Assembly (NCBI RefSeq): GCF_035285525.1
Contig: NZ_JAYKGW010000187.1
Coordinates: forward strand, 1-32,000
Length of the DNA stretch: 32,000 bases
Direction of reading: 5' to 3'
From: Okeania sp.
GTDB lineage: Bacteria > Cyanobacteriota > Cyanobacteriia > Cyanobacteriales > Microcoleaceae
The notes under the pieces are model-generated. The model did no database searches, had not been told where the DNA came from, and saw only the letters and a program-made list of their open reading frames with translations. Of the stretch, positions 2,024 through 27,205 are shown piece by piece; positions within the stretch are counted from its first letter, which is position 1, and every line of letters begins with the position of its first letter. The position numbers and the translations under genes were made by a program.

Positions 2024-3004
2024 ATGGAATCTACTGTCAATTTTCCCATTAAAGAAAAAATACCAGAAAAGTTACCAGTAATAGAAACTACTAACTTAGG
2101 TAAATCATACCGCACTGGCTTTTGGATGAATCAAAAAATAGAGTCTCTGAAAAACTGTAATTTGACAGTTTATCAAGGAGAGACTTTTGGGCTTTTAGGA
2201 CAAAATGGTGCAGGTAAGACTACTCTACTTAAAACTTTACTAGGAATTATCCGCCCTACCTCTGGGGAAGGAACATTATTAGGGCAACCAATAGGCGATC
2301 GCTTGGTTAAGGAAAAAATTGGTTATTTGCCAGAAAATCCTTATTTTTATGACTATTTAACTGGATGGGAATTTTTGGAGTTTGTAGCTGGATTATTTCA
2401 AATATCTAAATCAATACAAAAACAAATAATACCGGAGTTACTTGATTTAGTTGGATTATCTAAATCGGCAGCTATAAAAAAACAATTACGTCAATATTCT
2501 AAAGGAATGTTGCAAAGAGTTGGGATGGCGCAAGCTTTGATTAATGACCCAGAATTAGTGTTTTTAGATGAACCAATGTCAGGTTTAGATCCAATGGGGC
2601 GTTATCAAATCAGAGAAATTATTGTTTCTTTGAAGGAAAAAGGAAAGACTATTTTTTTTAATAGTCATGTTTTATCAGATGTGGAAAAAGTTTGTGATCG
2701 GATAGCTATTCTTGTAGCTGGAGAATTAATTTGTATTGGTACTTTGGATGAAGTATTAGGCATAAATGAAACCTATTATGTTAAGGGTAAAAGTGGTAAT
2801 ATTCAGATCCTTAAACAATGGATTCCAGATTTAGAATTTGAGAATAATTTTTGGCAAGGTCATTTACAGGGAGACCCTCAAGAATTTTTAGTTAGTCTGG
2901 GATTAATGAAAGCTACACTAATTAATATGAACATTGAAAAGATTAGTCTAGAAGAATATTTTATGCAGAAATTACGAGAACGAGGAATTTTTGCTAGTAA
3001 TTAA
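2024..3004 (+). CDS. ABC transporter ATP-binding protein
   Basis: Walker A GQNGAGKTT, ABC signature YSKGMLQRVGMAQAL, Walker B LVFLDEPMSGLD, H-loop NSHVL. About 100-aa C-terminal accessory domain. No adjacent permease. Confidence 0.93.
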   Translation: MESTVNFPIKEKIPEKLPVIETTNLGKSYRTGFWMNQKIESLKNCNLTVYQGETFGLLGQNGAGKTTLLKTLLGIIRPTSGEGTLLGQPIGDRLVKEKIGYLPENPYFYDYLTGWEFLEFVAGLFQISKSIQKQIIPELLDLVGLSKSAAIKKQLRQYSKGMLQRVGMAQALINDPELVFLDEPMSGLDPMGRYQIREIIVSLKEKGKTIFFNSHVLSDVEKVCDRIAILVAGELICIGTLDEVLGINETYYVKGKSGNIQILKQWIPDLEFENNFWQGHLQGDPQEFLVSLGLMKATLINMNIEKISLEEYFMQKLRERGIFASN

Positions 3005-3043
3005 TAAATACTTCCAAAAAAGAGCGAAAAATCTTAGTTTATA

Positions 3044-3162
3044 TAGGGTTGGGAGACCAAACCCCGACGGTCTTAAATTCTACTATGGTTTGGTTTAGAA
3101 ACCAAAATCCTATTTTTATTTATCCTCAAGCTTCCCACCTTCTGCTTTTTCAGCAAATCCTA
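3044..3162. mobile_element. Short MITE of the TAGGG...CCTAAT family
   Basis: Starts tagggttgggagaccaaacccc and ends tttttcagcaaatcctaat. Carries an internal accaaacccc/ggtttggt inverted repeat like the one at 23202-23266. Abuts the next element. Confidence 0.5.
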
Positions 3163-3375
3163 ATTAGGGTTGTCTGAAAAAGTATGAAAGTATTAACATT
3201 CTAAAGTTTTAACCTTTTTATGTAGGGAAAAAGTACCTGGTTTTGAGCTGCTTAATGCACGATTCCCGAAAAATCAAAAATTTACCATCTTCGCTTCATC
3301 GTTGGGAAAAAAAATTACTTTCCTACTCCTCTACTCCCCTACTCCTGAAAAAAGACCTTTTCAGCAAACCCTAAT
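3163..3375. mobile_element. MITE, ATTAGGG...CCCTAAT family
   Basis: TIR attagggttgtctgaaaaag versus cttttcagcaaaccctaat. TA on both flanks (3161-62, 3376-77). The interior holds the cacgattcccgaaaaatcaaaaattt core and ctactcc repeats. It ends 3 nt from the GT2 stop codon. Confidence 0.72.
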
Positions 3376-18252: not shown

Positions 18253-19065
18253 TTACGAAAGTATTTCAATTTCAATCCAGACTCCTGTTTTTTTAGTATT
18301 AGGAATATATTCAATAGTAAGCTTGGGAATACAACTCAGGCGATCGTCCTGAAGCACCCCCGCCCCATTTAATGTTAAAGCATCAAGACAGGCTCCTGCT
18401 AAATTATCTAAATCAGAATTAGTGCGATGTTTTCCACAAAAACTAATATAAATAGCTGCTCTTTTTATTGGTAAATTTATCTCTAAATTCAGTTCAGAAA
18501 TTTGACGGTAAATTTCTACTTCTGCTTGATTTCTCCAGGCACGATATTGAGGTGGTAAATAAGTACCATTAGCAGTAACTCGCGGACGTGCTTTAGGAAC
18601 TACTTTCCCTGGAAGATAGAAATGAATTGTTGGAGAATTTTCAGATTCTTTAGATTTAAGGGGAGAAGTTGTATAATTCTTAGAATTATCCAAGGACAGA
18701 ATATTTTTGTTAATTTGGGTCTCTAGTTTTTCTGGCAAATTATCTTTTGGCTCCAAAGTAGCAAATTGCATTTGATATTTATCCTCTGTAGCAGATAAAT
18801 CAACTTTTCTATAAGTATCTAATTGTTTCCGGAAGCTAGGCCAACTTTTAGCTATTTGTAAATAAGTCTCTGCACAGTTGGTTGAGAAATGACAATTCTT
18901 TTGGAACCAAGTTTGCCATTCAGTAGGTGAAAATAAAGTTTTAATTTCTAATAATAATTGACCCAAAGAATAAGCATAAGCCATAGAATTTTTTGGGTCA
19001 TTTTGGCATTTTTGATGTTTGAAATTAATATCATTTATTAAGTTTTTCCAGTTAATTAATACCAT
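18253..19065 (-). CDS. RusA-family Holliday junction resolvase fused to an N-terminal DUF3102-like domain
   Basis: The C-terminal ~130 aa read PKARPRV...YRAWRNQ...SDLDNLAGACLDALTLNGAGVLQDDRL, matching the RusA D-x-D-N...DAL...DD pattern. The N-terminal LGQLLLEIKTLFSPTEWQTWFQKNCHFSTNCAETYLQIAKSW resembles DUF3102. Confidence 0.85.
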   Translation of the reverse strand: MVLINWKNLINDINFKHQKCQNDPKNSMAYAYSLGQLLLEIKTLFSPTEWQTWFQKNCHFSTNCAETYLQIAKSWPSFRKQLDTYRKVDLSATEDKYQMQFATLEPKDNLPEKLETQINKNILSLDNSKNYTTSPLKSKESENSPTIHFYLPGKVVPKARPRVTANGTYLPPQYRAWRNQAEVEIYRQISELNLEINLPIKRAAIYISFCGKHRTNSDLDNLAGACLDALTLNGAGVLQDDRLSCIPKLTIEYIPNTKKTGVWIEIEILS

Positions 19066-19732: not shown

Positions 19733-20608
19733 TTAACGGCCTTTTCTACTGCCAAAACCACCACTCCGACGTGAAGGTGATAACCCACCGCTACCAAAAC
19801 TACGACGTTGTTGAGGAGGTTTTGCTGTATCTGAGCGACGCAAGTCACTAGCACCAACACCGCTTCCAGTAGAACGATTTGTATTTTGTTGTTGTTTACG
19901 AGTTCTGCTGCTGCCAGTAGAATTAGTTACACCTGTGGAACGCAAAGTTTGACGGTTTTTTACTGCTGCTGGTGGAGCTTGATAACGTTCTTGATATCGG
20001 TTAATAGCTTGGTTGTAGCTAGTTCCATATCCACCATACCCATTCATTACTCCACCTGCTTGATAAACTGGTGGTACATAATATTGAGGGGTGAACAACA
20101 TACTACTAATTGCTCCACCAACTACTTGACCTGCTACTGCTCCAGCAAAAGGTGCCCAGAAGTTAGACTCCCGACGCACAACAATAGTTTCTTGTCTACC
20201 AGTTTCTGGGTTAGTTTGGGTTTCGGTTACGTTGTGTACATATTCAATTTTAAAGTCAGATTTAATGTGTAAACTAGCTTGATTACTATTAATTTTGGCA
20301 TAGTTACTTTTGCCTTCCTGAATTTCCTCTTCTGTTAAACTTGCCATTTGCAAGTCTGTAGTGGTATAAATTGGAGGTTTACCTGAAGGAGTATTCAGTA
20401 ACATGAGGGAATATTCACCATTAGCATCGTTATAGGTTGCTTGTTGTACAGGATATTCTCCTTCAGTTACTTGGTTACGGTTGGGATTAGATGTAGATGA
20501 GATATTGAGATTTGAGTTTTGAGATGAGGTTGTACTGGAACTGCCACAGGCAACTGTTGTCCAAGACAATATTAAGCACATAAACAAAACGGTTAATTTA
20601 CGCAGCAT
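19733..20608 (-). CDS. Putative lipoprotein with a basic S/G/R-rich C-terminal tail
   Basis: Signal plus lipobox-like MLRKLTVLFMCLILSWTTVAC-GSS. 291 aa with a low-complexity tail. The stop abuts a gataaca heptamer array (19699-19732). Confidence 0.72.
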   Translation of the reverse strand: MLRKLTVLFMCLILSWTTVACGSSSTTSSQNSNLNISSTSNPNRNQVTEGEYPVQQATYNDANGEYSLMLLNTPSGKPPIYTTTDLQMASLTEEEIQEGKSNYAKINSNQASLHIKSDFKIEYVHNVTETQTNPETGRQETIVVRRESNFWAPFAGAVAGQVVGGAISSMLFTPQYYVPPVYQAGGVMNGYGGYGTSYNQAINRYQERYQAPPAAVKNRQTLRSTGVTNSTGSSRTRKQQQNTNRSTGSGVGASDLRRSDTAKPPQQRRSFGSGGLSPSRRSGGFGSRKGR

Positions 20609-21008
20609 ATAATGATAGCTCCTAAAATAACTTTGAGTGATTTTTACTTACTTATTCTACCTTGATTTTGCTTTTGAATATGTAAGGTAGTGAAATATTT
20701 TATCCCTTAGACCTCTCCAAAAATCAAACTTAAAATCAATTATCCCATACGAAATTATCAATTATTCTTCCCTGTTCTCACATATCTAGTGTTCCCTGTT
20801 CCCTCTTTTCTAGAGATGTCTCTTGATTTTTCTCCCATAGTCAGCAAAAAATGCTAAATTTTTGATTTTTCACCGATTTATCGGGAACCGTACCGTACCT
20901 GAGAGACTTAAAAGCTGGTAATTTTTCCAGAGATAAGAATGCTAAAACATTTACCTGTCAATCCTTTGATATTTAATCAGCCAGCCCTAATTATCCATTA
21001 TGAATTTA

Positions 21009-22958
21009 CTACTCTCCTTTCCCTGAATTCAAAACCTTCACAGCCGCTCCATCATTCAACTTCTGTAAACCTGAAACAATCAACTTATCCCCAGACACCA
21101 AACCCGACACCACCTCAGTCATATCACCCTGAACCAAACCCAACTCAATTATTTGACGTTTTGCCTTTTGCTGTTCACCTTCTCCCTCCAATAAATACAC
21201 AAATCGTGTCTCCCCTTCAAAAACTACTGCCGTCATTGGTACTACTACTGCTTGACGCTGTTCCCAAATCGCATTAACTTGCACAAACTGACCATCTTTT
21301 AAATTTCCAGCCCTATTATCCACATCTACTTTAACCAAAACAGTTTGAGAATCACTAACAGTAGGAGAAATAAAACTAACCTTCCCAACTCCCAAAATCT
21401 TATCTTCAGAACTCCTAATCTCCACAGGTAAACCCAGTCGTAAATCCTCTCGTCTCTCCAAAGGAATTGGTAAATTTACATCTAATACCTGATTTTCGGT
21501 CACAGTAGTTATAGTGTCACCATCATTAACAAAATCTCCTATCTTTACAACCATATCTCCAATCACACCTGCAAAAGGAGCAACAACCACCATATTGTCT
21601 AACTCAGCCTCCCAATTTTCTACCTCCGCTAAAGCTGCTCTTACTTCCGCCTCTGCCTGAGCAATTTCTTCCGAGCGAGTACCATTTTGCAACTCCTCTA
21701 AATTACTACGAGTCTCTGCTACCTCTGCCTCTGCTCTGGCAATCTCTTCCGGACGAGTACCATTTTGCAGTTCCTCTAAATTACTACGAACCTCTGCTAC
21801 TTCTGCCTCTGCCTGAGCAATTTCTTCCGGGCGAGTACCATTTTCTAGTCTTCTCAATATCTGGCGTTGTTGTTCTAATGCTGCTTCTAATGTTTGAATT
21901 GTAGATTCTCGATTTCTCTGTAACTGAGTCACTCGTTTTTTTGCTTCTTCTAATCTGGCTTTAGCTGCTCTCTCTTCCTGAAAAATTTCCTGAAAAGTTA
22001 ACTCAGCGATCGCTCCTTCTGCTCTTAAATTTTGGTTTCGCGTGACTTCTTCACTAGCTAATTCTAATTCTGCTTTTTGTACTTCTATTTGTGCCTCAGC
22101 TTGAGCAATTTCTTCTAAAAGACTACCCGTTCTGGCATTTTCTAGTCGTACTTTTGCCTCTTGTAATTCTGCTTTAGCTTCGGCAATCTCTTCCTCACGA
22201 GTACCAGCCCGGAGTTCAGCCAAGTTAGCTTGAGATTGTTGGAGACGTGCTCTAGCTGCGGCAATTTGTTCTGGTCTGGCTCCTGTTTTTAGTTGTGCCA
22301 AAGTAGCTTGAGATTGTTGGAGACGTGCTTTAGCTGCAGCAATTTGTTCTGGTCTGGCTCCTGTTTTTAGTTGTCCTAAACGTGCTTCTCTTTGCTGAAA
22401 GTTAGCTTTTGCTCTCCTTAAGTTAGCTTCCACATTATCACTTTTGAGTTTAGCGATCGCCTGCCCTTCAAAAACAAAAGTTCCTTCTTTTACTAAAATT
22501 TGGACTACCCTTCCATCTATTTCTGGTTTAATACTAACTGAGCGTTTGGCTTCCATAGTTCCTACAAATTCTGAAGTTTCTTGGAGGGAGGTAATTTTTA
22601 TTGGTATTACTTTAACTAAGGGAGTTCGTCGTCTACTTGGAGCTGTTTTTGCTGGTTGGTTTGTTGTTTGGTTAATATTAGATTGTCTAGATTCCCACCA
22701 TTGTCCTCCTAGAAATCCCAGTCCGAGAGTGGCAATAATTACTGTTACCCAAAGTACAACAGAAAAATTCTTTTTTTCAGACTGAGACGATTGAGGAATA
22801 GTATTTATTTGCTCTTCATGGAATTCTGTTTTAGTATTTTCTTGTAGATTTTCTATCGGTTTAGGTTTTTCTTCAATTACTGAGTTTGATGAATTATTAT
22901 TTAGCATTTTTTGACTTTTATTTTTAATTTTTTTGACTAAAGTTATAGTAATTCTCAA
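21009..22958 (-). CDS. HlyD/membrane-fusion-family periplasmic adaptor with an expanded coiled coil
   Basis: N-terminal TM helix (VVLWVTVIIATLGLGFLGG). Barrel-sandwich motifs are present (GTMEAKRSVSIKPEIDGRV..., APFAGVIGDM). About 8 copies of the G(A/T)RPEEI-A-A-A hairpin repeat. An alternative start lies at 22907 (MLNNNSS). Confidence 0.9.
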   Translation of the reverse strand: MRITITLVKKIKNKSQKMLNNNSSNSVIEEKPKPIENLQENTKTEFHEEQINTIPQSSQSEKKNFSVVLWVTVIIATLGLGFLGGQWWESRQSNINQTTNQPAKTAPSRRRTPLVKVIPIKITSLQETSEFVGTMEAKRSVSIKPEIDGRVVQILVKEGTFVFEGQAIAKLKSDNVEANLRRAKANFQQREARLGQLKTGARPEQIAAAKARLQQSQATLAQLKTGARPEQIAAARARLQQSQANLAELRAGTREEEIAEAKAELQEAKVRLENARTGSLLEEIAQAEAQIEVQKAELELASEEVTRNQNLRAEGAIAELTFQEIFQEERAAKARLEEAKKRVTQLQRNRESTIQTLEAALEQQRQILRRLENGTRPEEIAQAEAEVAEVRSNLEELQNGTRPEEIARAEAEVAETRSNLEELQNGTRSEEIAQAEAEVRAALAEVENWEAELDNMVVVAPFAGVIGDMVVKIGDFVNDGDTITTVTENQVLDVNLPIPLERREDLRLGLPVEIRSSEDKILGVGKVSFISPTVSDSQTVLVKVDVDNRAGNLKDGQFVQVNAIWEQRQAVVVPMTAVVFEGETRFVYLLEGEGEQQKAKRQIIELGLVQGDMTEVVSGLVSGDKLIVSGLQKLNDGAAVKVLNSGKGE

Positions 22959-23379: not shown

Positions 23380-24060
23380 GTTATTTTTTATTCTATTTTT
23401 AATTAGGGCTGAATGATTAATTATAAAAACATTTATATCATCAGGACTTACGCAAAGGTACTTACTATATCTATATGTAGATTTAAAAAACTATTTCGTA
23501 ATAGTTTTAAGTACTATATCTAGGGTTGCTGCGTAAGTCCCGATCATGTTCGTTTGAATACTTAAACTTTGCAGGAAGTAAGGCACAAGACAGAAAGCAG
23601 AAGGAAAGAAAAGGTAACTATGGGAGAAATTTTTTTTTATAACTGATTATCTGAAAATGATATTACAGGTAAAAGATTGATACTTCTTAGATTCGCAAAA
23701 AGTGCTAGATAAAGAGTTTAAAACCTGCAAAAAATTAGCATTTTAGACTAACTAAGGACAGAAAAATTGAGAGGCAATTATTACTCCTACTTTTTCTAAA
23801 TTACCTGTTTGTCCTGACTCCTAACCCCTACCTCTACCACTCATACTTTCCATACGCAAACCCTAATTACTTTTGACTTCCGTAAAATTGAATAACCCAT
23901 AAAAAGAAGTATTCGAGCGGATGAAATATATCGTAACAAATAATCAGTTAGTTTTCAATATTTCTTAATATTTGTCCAAATTTATTTAATCCTTTGTCAT
24001 GTTATGGTAGTAACTATGTTAAAATTTTGATAATTAACAAAAACTATAACGTTATAGTTA

Positions 24061-24350
24061 TGACGGAATTATTAGTAAGTACAACGGAAGCACCTTTGAA
24101 AAACCTAGCCAATCCTAGACATTTTTAGGAATTGTCTCTTCATTGGTTGCAGATTAAGTCAAAACTGACTACGTTGGCAGGTCACGACCACTATAAGTGA
24201 ACTCCAGCTTATATCCAGGTCGCTCTAAATTAAGGAAAGCGTTTAGTAGCGCCAATCGGAAGTAGGTTTTGTACCGATAGTGTTTAGAGTATGGACAAGC
24301 CTGGCCAACATAATCGAGGAACACTTTACTGAAAAGGACTAGACGCCAAA
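24061..24350 (+). ncRNA. Putative IscB omega RNA (HEARO-type guide/scaffold RNA); ends are approximate
   Basis: Sits immediately 5' of iscB on the same strand and is less AT-rich than surrounding spacers. Nested complementary segments: 24173-24183/24299-24309, 24186-24197/24208-24221, 24223-24229/24283-24289, 24255-24259/24274-24278. No ORF and no match to the local MITE families. Confidence 0.55.
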
Positions 24351-25655
24351 ATGTCTAACACTAATTACGTTTTCGTCATAGATACAAACAAAAAACCATT
24401 GCCACCCTGTAAGCCAAGTGTAGCTCGTAGATTGTTAAATTCTGCTAGAGCTGCTGTATGGCGACGCTTTCCGTTTACTTTAATTCTCAAAAAAGCTGTA
24501 AAAAGAGTTACCAAAATAACTTTAGTTCTGAAAATTGACCCAGGCTCAAAATTCACAGGTATGGCTTTATTAGAAGGAAATAAGGTGATATGGATGTTAG
24601 AAATTCAACATCGAGGTTCATTAATTTCCGAAAAACTGCAAAAGCGTTCTCAAAGAAGGAGAGCGAGAAGGACAAAAAATCTGAGATATCGTAAACCAGG
24701 ATTACCTAATAAAAAGAAACATACTGGTTGGTTAGCACCTTCTCTCATGCACAGAGTTGAAACTACTATGACTTGGGTGAAACGATTAATGAAGTTTTGT
24801 CCTGTTCAATCAATCTCAATGGAGCTGGTTCGCTTTGATACTCAATTGATTCAAAATCCAGAAATTTCTGGCACTGAGTATCAGCAAGGGGAATTAGCAG
24901 GGTATGAGCTGAGAGAATATTTATTAGAAAAATGGGGTCGTCAATGTGCTTATTGTGGTCAAACTGATACGCCACTAGAGATAGAACATATTCGCCCTAA
25001 GTCAAAAGGAGGTTCAGACCGAGCATCTAACTTAACAGTGGCCTGTACTAAATGCAATCAACTAAAGAGTAACCAAGATGTTAAGGACTTCTTATCTGGA
25101 AAACCAGAATTATTAAAGCGAATACAAACCCAAGCCAAATTGCCTTTAAAAGATGCAGCAGCGGTTAATTCTACTCGGTGGAAATTGTTCAATGCGTTAA
25201 AAACTACAGGTCTGGAAGTAACTACAGGTAGCGGGGGACAAACAAAATTTAACCGAAGAAAACATAAACTGCCAAAAGCGCACTGTATAGATGCTGCTTG
25301 TGTAGGTGAAGTTCGGGAGTTAAACTTTCATACTACCCAAGCTTTAGTTGCTATTTGCAAGGGGCAAGGAGGTAGACAGAAAGCAGCGGTAAATAAATAT
25401 GGATACCCCATAAGGTACAACCCACTAAAACCGATAAAAGGTTGGAATAGTGGAGACTTAGCTTTGAATATGGAAACTGGAGTTGTAGGTAGAGTTAATC
25501 CTCGCTCAAAATCAAATAGTTTTAATTTCACAGTGCCTGGGCACAAAGCCAAAAGTGTTCATGTAAGGAAATTAAAAATTGTACACAAGAAAGACGGTTA
25601 TGCCTATACATTTAGTCCACAGTTGTCCATAGATGTCAAGGAAAATGCCGTCTAA
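24351..25655 (+). CDS. iscB: IscB RNA-guided endonuclease (RuvC-HNH, OMEGA system)
   Basis: 434 aa. PLMP-like N-terminus (VFVIDTNKKPLPPCKPSVARRLL), RuvC-I LKIDPGSKFTGMA and an Arg-rich bridge helix RSQRRRARRTKNLRYRKP. Then RuvC-II WLAPSL...SMELVRFD, HNH CAYCG...LEIEHIRPKSKGGSDRASNLTVACTKCNQLK and RuvC-III HCIDAACVG. A C-terminal ~100-aa domain follows. Confidence 0.93.
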   Translation: MSNTNYVFVIDTNKKPLPPCKPSVARRLLNSARAAVWRRFPFTLILKKAVKRVTKITLVLKIDPGSKFTGMALLEGNKVIWMLEIQHRGSLISEKLQKRSQRRRARRTKNLRYRKPGLPNKKKHTGWLAPSLMHRVETTMTWVKRLMKFCPVQSISMELVRFDTQLIQNPEISGTEYQQGELAGYELREYLLEKWGRQCAYCGQTDTPLEIEHIRPKSKGGSDRASNLTVACTKCNQLKSNQDVKDFLSGKPELLKRIQTQAKLPLKDAAAVNSTRWKLFNALKTTGLEVTTGSGGQTKFNRRKHKLPKAHCIDAACVGEVRELNFHTTQALVAICKGQGGRQKAAVNKYGYPIRYNPLKPIKGWNSGDLALNMETGVVGRVNPRSKSNSFNFTVPGHKAKSVHVRKLKIVHKKDGYAYTFSPQLSIDVKENAV

Positions 25656-25787
25656 AACTTAACAGGTAGTCGTGGCCCTGAAGGAACTTGGAACAAAAAT
25701 AAGCGTAAAGCGAATACTTTTGTTCACGTTCTACGCAAGACTATTGATTATAACAGAAACAACGGAACTTCTCATCCTGCAATTGCC

Positions 25788-26075
25788 GTGAAAGTCGGAA
25801 ATAAAAAGGATTATTGTCACGCTTTGAAAATTCACGGACCCTGCGTAATAGTCTATCAACCCCATCAACCCAATACAAGTCAAGCTGGGGGAGCGCGCTT
25901 GTGGATGGAAGTTGAACCGCAACATAGAGTAGAGCGAGTATATTTTTCCGATGGAGATTATGGTCTGCCTCCAGAAGTGGTTCAGCAAAGACAGACATTT
26001 AAAAAGAAGAAATCAAAAGTCAAAAAGGGAAAACTGAAACCGAAGGGTAAGAAGGGTAATAAAAGAAGAAATTAA
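25788..26075 (+). CDS. Hypothetical protein with a lysine-rich tail; possibly a degraded gene
   Basis: The first canonical start is GTG at 25788. The frame is open and protein-like from 25710 (ANTFVHVLRKTIDYNRNNGTSHPAIA...). The C-terminus is KKKKSKVKKGKLKPKGKKGNKRRN. Two antisense ORFs overlap it, so coding status is uncertain. Confidence 0.4.
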   Translation: MKVGNKKDYCHALKIHGPCVIVYQPHQPNTSQAGGARLWMEVEPQHRVERVYFSDGDYGLPPEVVQQRQTFKKKKSKVKKGKLKPKGKKGNKRRN

Positions 26076-26511: not shown

Positions 26512-26726
26512 AATAGGGTTTGCTGAAAAAGTATTTTTAAGGGGATGGGGAGATAGGGTGATGGGGTGATGGGGAGTAATTTTGTGACCCAACTCTTCCC
26601 CAAAATATGCTCCTTTTTGATTTTTCAGGAACTGTACCAAAGCTACCCAAAAAGTTGCACTTTTTCCTTACCTAAAAAGGTACTTATATATGTCAAATTT
26701 TTTAGATTTATTCAGCAAGCCCTAAA
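26512..26726. mobile_element. MITE, TAGGG...CCCTA family, complete copy
   Basis: tagggtttgctgaa (26514-26527) versus ttcagcaagcccta (26711-26724), 13/14 as an inverted repeat. TA on both flanks. The interior has gatgggg repeats and the tttttgatttttcaggaactgtacc core. Confidence 0.75.
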
Positions 26727-26857
26727 TATCTAAATTCATCCCTAATTTTAGTACATCAAAACTTATTTTGACAGTTATTTTATAGATTCACTATAATCCC
26801 TTCAAGAATTAGCTTTTCTAGTAAAAATTGATACTCAGGCTGGATGATAAATATATC

Positions 26858-27118
26858 TAGGGTTTGCGTATGGAAAGTCTGATGGTTAAAGGAGGGAGTA
26901 GGGAGTATGTAGTTGCATGCAACGTCCTTACAGAGTTAAGATTTAAGGGAGTTGTAGAAGAAGTGGTTATTTATAATCTCCCCTTAGTTTTTCTGTCATA
27001 ATTACCCTAAAGTCCTCACTTTTTCCCTCCATCAACCCAAAAGCTGGTACTTTTTTAGCATCTAAAATTATTCAAACGTTTATCTATAAACGCTTTCATA
27101 TTTAATCAGCAACCCCTA
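26858..27118. mobile_element. MITE-like element of the same superfamily
   Basis: tagggtttgcgtatggaaagtc ... tttaatcagcaaccccta. Contains gggagta repeats and the ttgcatgcaacgtcc palindrome fragment. Confidence 0.5.
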
Positions 27119-27205
27119 TATATATTAGACATATCCAATAATAAAAAATTAATCAATTAGGGGTAATCATTAATTATTTCCCTCTACTCCCTACTCCCTC
27201 TTTTC

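Follow-up and report, generated by a model that had tools for sequence, protein, structure and literature searches.

The HEARO RNA family (Rfam RF02033) is equated in the literature with the omega RNA of the IscB nucleases (Meers et al., 10.1101/2023.03.14.532601; Goltsman et al., PMC9755519). Goltsman et al. reported RF02033 matches in the 5′ untranslated regions of 65% of these nucleases, with the 5′ “spacer” region being reprogrammed, and Meers et al. accepted HEARO matches of at least 15 bits if these lay upstream of iscB. The closest described systems are the canonical HEAROs, the OgeuIscB omega RNA (7XHT, 7UTN; PMC9640706), and the IscB element of Geobacillus stearothermophilus (Meers et al.). 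The present study analyzes the leader of an iscB gene in a window of 32,000 nt from Okeania sp. (contig NZ_JAYKGW010000187.1, positions 1 to 32,000 of the forward strand). We are highly confident that 24091–24329 is the scaffold of an IscB omega RNA of the HEARO family, carried by a 1575-bp non-autonomous IS200/IS605-type element that contains only the RNA and iscB. A first-pass annotation, made from the letters alone, had proposed that this leader is the IscB guide RNA scaffold, and an end-to-end HEARO match, an IscB encoded downstream, and covariation all bear this out. Family membership, a structure supported by covariation, the boundaries of the element, and an intact IscB are the established part of this reading.

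A default Rfam scan of the window, with the gathering cut-off on, gave no match. In a scan without the cut-off RF02033 matched over its full length (model positions 1–211) at 24108–24329 of the plus strand, with 59.7 bits and an E-value of 2.2e-11, and cmscan left an inserted hairpin and the enlarged loop of the terminal hairpin, both described below, as a single unaligned insert of 35 nt. Sister copies of the clade to which this RNA belongs all score under the Rfam cut-off (42–69 bits), in contrast to canonical HEAROs of other cyanobacteria, which occupy the same position by iscB and score above it (87–165 bits). The gathering threshold of 83 bits for RF02033 is an operational cut-off, and the RNA is to be taken as a divergent but ordinary member, by descent, of the HEARO/omega RNA family even though it scores below that value. 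The leader is poorer in AT than the sequence around it, as had been noticed in the first pass (GC 0.42 in 24108–24329 versus 0.30 upstream and 0.348 in the whole window), and it likewise proved to be without similarity to the local families of miniature inverted-repeat transposable elements (MITEs), having nothing in common with other repeats of the window. No second copy of the omega RNA was found within the window. A 51-aa open reading frame (ORF) on the minus strand at 24169–24324 was taken as spurious.

The gene that follows, iscB (24351–25655, plus strand), encodes a protein of 434 aa in which Pfam recognizes RRXRR (1.3e-65) and HNH (2e-12), and the exact protein is present at NCBI as WP_324238111.1, “RNA-guided endonuclease IscB [Okeania sp.]”. 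Among solved structures, it is matched best by IscB proteins (E 5e-39 to 7e-24). Residues D63, E158, H214, H311, and D314 align with D61, E193, H247, H340, and D343 of OgeuIscB, which are the RuvC and HNH catalytic residues (Kato et al., PMC9640706), and the PLMP motif reads PLPP in the Okeania protein. The two proteins, of 434 aa here versus 496 in OgeuIscB, align over about 320 residues at E 7e-24. The Okeania protein looks intact, with the IscB domains and all catalytic residues kept.

The scaffold occupies 24091–24329 on the plus strand, the Rfam match being extended upstream to 24091 by the clade alignment; the start at 24061 given in the first-pass annotation did not hold. It begins with a guide-adaptor hairpin domain (24091–24149) comprising an outer first stem, P1 (24091–99 with 24140–49, 8–9 bp, invariant in the 30 other copies), and an inner hairpin, P2 (24110–17 with 24126–34), which includes the previously listed pairing of TCCTA (24113–17) with TAGGA (24126–30). 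There follow a closing, “nexus-like” stem (24152–56 GAUUA with 24311–15 UAAUC), a small hairpin, P3, at 24157–24170 (AGUC...GACU, 24157–60 with 24167–70), and the central long-range stem, P4 (24173–82 with 24299–309), in which GTTGGCAGGTC (24173–83) faces GCCTGGCCAAC (24299–309) through 6 bp, one bulged G, and then 3 bp and a G-U. P4 encloses P5, P6, and P7. The P5 hairpin (24186–89 with 24218–21 and 24192–98 with 24207–13; GACC..TATAAG at 24186–97 facing CTTATA..GGTC at 24208–21) has the loop GAACUCCA at 24199–24206, from which UCC (24203–05) can form a pseudoknot with GGA (24318–20) in the 3′ tail. The P6 stem (24222–30 with 24282–90; CTCTAAA at 24223–29 with TTTAGAG at 24283–89) in turn encloses P7a, a clade-specific inserted hairpin at 24239–24252 (GCGU...GCGC, 24239–42 with 24249–52) that is absent from the canonical HEARO, and P7b at 24253–24280, made of a C24253-G24280 pair, an A-A mismatch, ATCGG (24255–59) with CCGAT (24274–78), and a loop of 14 nt. 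A linker (24330–24350) with a ribosome-binding-like AAGGA motif at 24334–24338 leads to the start codon and is conserved where iscB is kept. The five pairings of the first pass, which comprised part of P2 and all or most of P4, P5, P6, and P7b, were thus present at their positions, and all are helices of the HEARO family; P1, the closing stem, P3, P7a, and the putative pseudoknot had escaped notice.

Three placements were rejected in arriving at this structure. Rfam would begin the first stem at 24108, a register suited to the mutated window copy alone. Among the 30 sister copies, UCAAAGGUUG, which directly precedes the invariant CAG, has as its partner the nine bases that open the element, CACCUUUGA (24091–99), and not GCCAAU. 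Likewise in canonical HEAROs the first bases pair, and covary, with the bases before CAG (GUCAGC/GCUGAC, GUAAAC/GUUUAC, GUCAGG/CCUGAC). The helix that RF02033 writes as [[[[[ ]]]]] was considered as a pseudoknot and is instead the nested closing stem, the likely pseudoknot being that of the P5 loop with the tail. Lastly, a pairing of 24236–37 with 24280–81 was replaced by C24253-G24280, which fits the canonical family.

Set beside a canonical HEARO, the Okeania RNA agrees in position and orientation relative to iscB and in the order of its parts, i.e. a first hairpin domain, the invariant CAG, the closing stem, the small hairpin, ACGUU, the central stem, a CCAG-loop hairpin, a UUAA stem, the terminal hairpin with ...AGUG, and a tail of ACAU..CGAGG...UUAC, and the helices of the two covary jointly. 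The clade differs in its lower bit scores, in a first stem that reads CACCUUUGA followed by a 10-nt linker where canonical members have GUCAGC, in the extra 14-nt hairpin of the last arm (P7a), in a terminal hairpin loop of 14 nt versus 4 nt, and in a possible pseudoknot of 3 bp only. The OgeuIscB omega RNA shares a 5′ guide joined straight to the guide-adaptor hairpin, the long-range closing (“nexus”) stem, the central stem, and probably the pairing of a hairpin loop with the bases just past the closing stem, but the RNA sequences are unalignable and the helices would correspond by topology only. The TnpB omega RNA (reRNA) and the tracrRNA:crRNA of Cas9 also resemble this RNA in that a structured scaffold with a short guide directs a RuvC-type nuclease. 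The TnpB gene, however, has its RNA at the 3′ end, as this RNA in turn has its guide, the guides of Cas9 come from a CRISPR array, and neither system matches the Okeania RNA by sequence or by Rfam scanning.

Support for the helices comes chiefly from covariation among relatives in 79 loci, obtained by a scan of one genome per species and falling into a close group of Okeania, Trichodesmium, Dapis, and related metagenome-assembled genomes (IscB identity 76–91%) and a distant group of other cyanobacteria (44–57%). Two alignments were made with MAFFT and anchored on conserved blocks, one of 31 clade copies from Okeania, Trichodesmium, and Dapis (A1) and one of 34 sequences consisting of 10 from the clade and 24 canonical cyanobacterial HEAROs (A2). 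In A1, 94.7% of cells were standard-paired versus 24–39% with slid partners, and 15 pairs changed on both sides, these being located in P2, the closing stem, P4, P5, P6, and P7a, while P1, P3, and P7b were without informative variation inside the clade. For A2 the corresponding value was 89.8% versus at most 38% in slid controls, with both sides changing in 34 of 44 pairs and a covariation score of 0.58 versus 0.05–0.13. None of 500 shuffles of A2 reached the observed values, although such counts are not probabilities, the copies being related by descent and the structure partly derived from the same sequences; more weight rests on the slid-partner controls and on how many distinct pair types occur.

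Single helices illustrate the pattern. The P2 pair 23–42 takes the forms U-A (12 copies) and C-G (8), and in the closing stem, columns 66/249 hold U-A (16 copies), C-G (9), and U-G (5), both in A1, with four of its five pairs changing on both sides in A2. P3 is invariant in A1 and has two of four pairs so changed in A2. P4 is paired in 98.4% of A1 cells with compensatory changes in two pairs (seven of ten pairs in A2), and P5 shows a swap of A-U to U-A at 24196/24209 in 14 of the 31 copies (10 of 11 pairs in A2). Four P6 pairs change on both sides in A1, including three adjacent swaps in L071 and L076–79, as do eight of nine in A2. P7a goes from G-C to U-A in five A1 copies and forms an 18-column insertion in A2. 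P7b has no compensatory change inside the clade; it is the positional homologue of the terminal hairpin of canonical HEAROs and covaries with it, the pair 24255/24278 being found as A-U (11 sequences), G-C (21), and U-A (2) when clade and canonical members are combined. All five helices listed in the first pass therefore show compensatory change, ATCGG/CCGAT doing so only once the canonical HEAROs are included. The pseudoknot covaries among canonical HEAROs (UUUCC/GGAAA, UCGCC/GGCGA, UAGCU/AGCUA, UUGCU/AGCAA), and an analogous loop-to-tail pseudoknot of the OgeuIscB omega RNA is functionally required (PMC9640706). Some sister copies depart from the common structure. In L006, P6 has three adjacent uncompensated mismatches (A1 columns 138–140, CUCCUUA versus UUUAGAG), and judging by these its omega RNA is probably degraded. 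In L046 (2720–2979), 23 nt are inserted between the 3′ strand of the central stem and that of the closing stem, which disrupts the closing stem.

The limits of the element are sharp. Similarity among the 31 copies starts abruptly at 24091 (CACCTTTGAAAAACC...), with upstream flanks that are unrelated and different in every copy, and among at least 25 copies it stops exactly at 25665 (...GTCTAAAACTTAACAG), 10 nt past the iscB stop codon; flanks were unrelated across 22–28 independent insertions. The element is accordingly 24091–25665, or 1575 bp of omega RNA and iscB without tnpA, its far end being AACTTAACAG (25656–25665, plus strand), and two contigs, each of 1573 nt, hold almost precisely this unit and nothing else. 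There is no inverted repetition between the ends, CACCTTTG... and ...TTAACAG, and the flanks have no more than “AG” in common. Many copies, sharp common ends, and the lack of both terminal inverted repeats and a target duplication are traits of the IS200/IS605 type. At one side the scaffold 5′ end coincides with the transposon end, and at the other, 21 nt separate the end of the omega RNA from the start codon of iscB, both being on the same strand. Since the scaffold starts at 24091, the guide would be encoded by the host flank directly upstream, i.e. GTAAGTACAACGGAAG at 24075–24090 (plus strand) if 16 nt are taken, on the basis of a guide length of 16–17 nt from OgeuIscB work (PMC9640706). 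The earlier suggestion of a guide at the 5′ edge of the scaffold holds in principle, given the abrupt start and unrelated flanks, with its place at about 24075–24090 and not literally at 24061.

The arrangement recalls that of the G. stearothermophilus element (Meers et al., 10.1101/2023.03.14.532601), which is also non-autonomous and of IS200/IS605 type, has the omega RNA at one transposon end with iscB downstream, draws its guide from the flank, and is inserted in the orientation of the upstream gene. It differs in that the motif (TTCAT) and the partner TnpA were experimentally defined there, whereas the Okeania window has no TnpA in the scanned ORFs. An RNA and iscB unit lacking tnpA fits a non-autonomous IS200/IS605-type element, the usual state of iscB according to Meers et al. 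There were also derivatives (L062, L065, L070, L071, and, at about 2743–3183, L076–L079) in which the omega RNA and both element ends are kept and most of iscB is lost. A 441-bp version without iscB sits at the same site in the four Okeania genomes L076–L079, and the iscB-less copies of L071 and L076–79 carry compensatory changes in P5, P6, and P7a.

An alternative explanation could be that the helices act as DNA, as sub-terminal transposon-end hairpins recognized by TnpA on single-stranded DNA, and not as RNA. The structure does begin exactly at the element end, IS200/IS605 ends carry such hairpins (Meers et al., 10.1101/2023.03.14.532601), and the first 60 nt or so could serve both purposes. 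About 240 nt of nested helices with a putative pseudoknot nevertheless far exceed a TnpA end hairpin, and the match is to a family of RNAs whose role as the IscB guide was established by experiment (PMC9755519). The strands also differ. With the same structure, 94.7% of cells are paired when the plus strand is read versus 88.7% for the minus strand, and the G-U cells, several of the wobbles being invariant, outnumber A-C cells by 159 to 33, which indicates that the folded molecule is plus-strand RNA. We consider the DNA explanation very improbable. Highly improbable too is a cis-acting 5′ untranslated leader that would control iscB translation or stability and have no guide function. Such a leader would lie where this RNA lies, directly upstream of iscB in the same orientation, with its 3′ tail 21 nt from the start codon and a ribosome-binding-like motif between. 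It would not account for retention of the RNA in the iscB-less derivatives L062, L065, and L076–79, nor for a 5′ boundary at the transposon end, as a result of which each copy acquires a different 5′ flank, and homologous RNAs are proven guides (PMC9755519, PMC9640706).

More weight may be given to the possibility that the RNA is an omega RNA by descent but that the window copy is a decaying, non-functional relic, in which a mutation of P1 would block correct presentation of the guide. The window copy alone has TC-TCAAAGG changed to TCTTCATTGG, in a stretch invariant across the 30 others, creating two private U-U mismatches in P1 (U24095xU24144 and U24096xU24143). The P1 duplex is weakened from -10.4 to -6.4 kcal/mol and the guide-adaptor domain from -14.8 to -11.9 kcal/mol, and a competing fold, with the new AUUGG paired to CCAAU (24109–13), lies at -11.5, only 0.4 kcal/mol above the minimum. 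In addition many sister copies are visibly degraded, through truncated iscB or, in L006, the broken P6. Yet the predicted minimum-energy fold retains P1, to which the inserted U contributes an additional A-U pair; every other helix of the window copy is intact, and the iscB frame is open over its full length and encodes all catalytic residues. On balance we regard a relic as unlikely, and an omega RNA scaffold is the reading retained here. The mutation itself (24139–24147 and 24109–24113) consists of a private AA to TT change and a 1-nt insertion that together make AUUGG exactly complementary to the upstream CCAAU, a pattern that would be expected of a template-switch mutation in a quasi-palindrome.

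Together with the private mismatches of P1 and its close competing fold, several other observations speak against an omega RNA scaffold at this locus. The match of 59.7 bits is below the Rfam gathering threshold of 83 bits, and the RF02033 model mis-registers the first stem. The pseudoknot can form only 3 bp in this clade (UCC/GGA), and its bases never vary. Minimum-energy folding of 24040–24370, which the first pass had proposed as a check, returns most of the helices it quoted, but the folding energy does not stand out from that of shuffled sequence (z = -0.94 for 24040–24370 and -1.18 for 24108–24329). Thermodynamics alone is therefore no proof of a real structure, and folding energy was dropped as evidence because these scores do not discriminate. 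A sigma-70-type scan of 23800–24350 found no promoter-like site on the plus strand, such a scan being of little weight for cyanobacteria. Flank logos across copies showed no conserved motif on either side; the right flank slightly favours A at +4 and +5 and shows nothing stronger. No Y1 transposase (TnpA) was found among the scanned window ORFs of at least 110 aa, with overlapping plus-strand ORFs at 19886–20272 and 20939–21277 left unscanned. The missing tnpA is to be expected, however, because about 98% of iscB genes have no tnpA nearby (Meers et al., 10.1101/2023.03.14.532601).

The site of insertion is a small host gene, of which a 5′ fragment remains at 24060–24090 (plus strand) and the remainder at 25666–26075. 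Joining the two yields an in-frame ORF of 146 aa (MTELLVSTTE running into GSRGPEGTWNK...) that ends in a lysine-rich tail. Homologues of 136 aa, intact and located at contig ends, occur in L043 and L063, and the right flank corresponds to the 5′ part of that small gene; a Pfam search of the joined ORF gave no family. As the flanks join in frame, the element sits sense-oriented within the first dozen codons of the host gene. Meers et al. (10.1101/2023.03.14.532601) reported a bias of orientation toward the upstream gene, with which the insertion in the window agrees, and read-through from the host gene could supply transcription of guide and scaffold. In published systems the target-adjacent motif is expected at the element end that faces away from the RNA. 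Here it may be the last 3–6 nt of the conserved block (CAG or TAACAG), which would then not be transposon DNA. Joins that keep 0, 3, or 6 nt all leave the host ORF in frame, and comparison with the paralogues favours none of them. For an empty site, there was no spanning match among the 79 loci, and a metagenome scan gave 0 matches.

From these features and from work on related elements we infer transcription, guide length, motif, and nuclease activity as follows. Transcription would enter from the flank, probably from the promoter of the interrupted host gene, to judge by the orientation of the insertion. The RNA would then start with about 16 nt of flank (24075–24090) acting as guide, as the mapped boundary suggests, and continue into the scaffold. 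By homology, the scaffold is expected to fold into the guide-adaptor hairpin, the closing stem, the central stem with its two arms, and the loop-tail pseudoknot, and IscB would bind this fold. If the Geobacillus work (Meers et al.) applies, the complex would cleave sites at which a match to the guide precedes the target-adjacent motif. Such a sequence would be the empty donor site left after a TnpA acting in trans excises the element, and repair from a sister copy would restore it.

The analysis places a previously unannotated guide RNA beside a gene already named IscB. A whole clade of omega RNAs from marine filamentous cyanobacteria falls under the Rfam cut-off and so has been overlooked by routine annotation. 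The scaffold (24091–24329), the guide position, and the 31-copy alignment may be used in testing the compact 434-aa IscB as an editing tool, the alignment showing which helices tolerate change and including a natural variant of the first stem. Understanding of how IscB/omega RNA systems work is unchanged by the finding. As a tentative and rather doubtful proposal, the Okeania, Trichodesmium, and Dapis copies might form a distinct omega RNA subclass missed by standard Rfam annotation, marked by the inserted hairpin, the enlarged terminal loop, the minimal pseudoknot, and the first stem with its long linker, and the iscB-less mini-elements of L076–79 could be stand-alone guide RNAs steering IscB made elsewhere to extra sites. 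Two loci, L004 (226–443, minus strand) and L066 (3442–3717), have a second, canonical HEARO (157 and 121 bits) within the locus recovered by its iscB, showing that two omega RNA subfamilies coexist in one genome.

There were some further features in the window. Genes neighbouring the element are housekeeping in character and encode an HlyD-like protein, RuvB, GlgC, and an amylase. Short dispersed repeats at 26547–27205 (52–138 nt, 71–88% identity) match seven other places in the window; they are consistent with the MITE families noted in the first pass, and the omega RNA is free of them. At 23543–23589 the Hsp17 RNA thermometer is matched weakly (17 bits, E 4.9), most likely by chance. An ORF of 270 aa lies on the minus strand at 18253–19065; its RusA Holliday-junction resolvase domain is confined to the C-terminal half (residues 152–267), and RuvB is 8 kb away.

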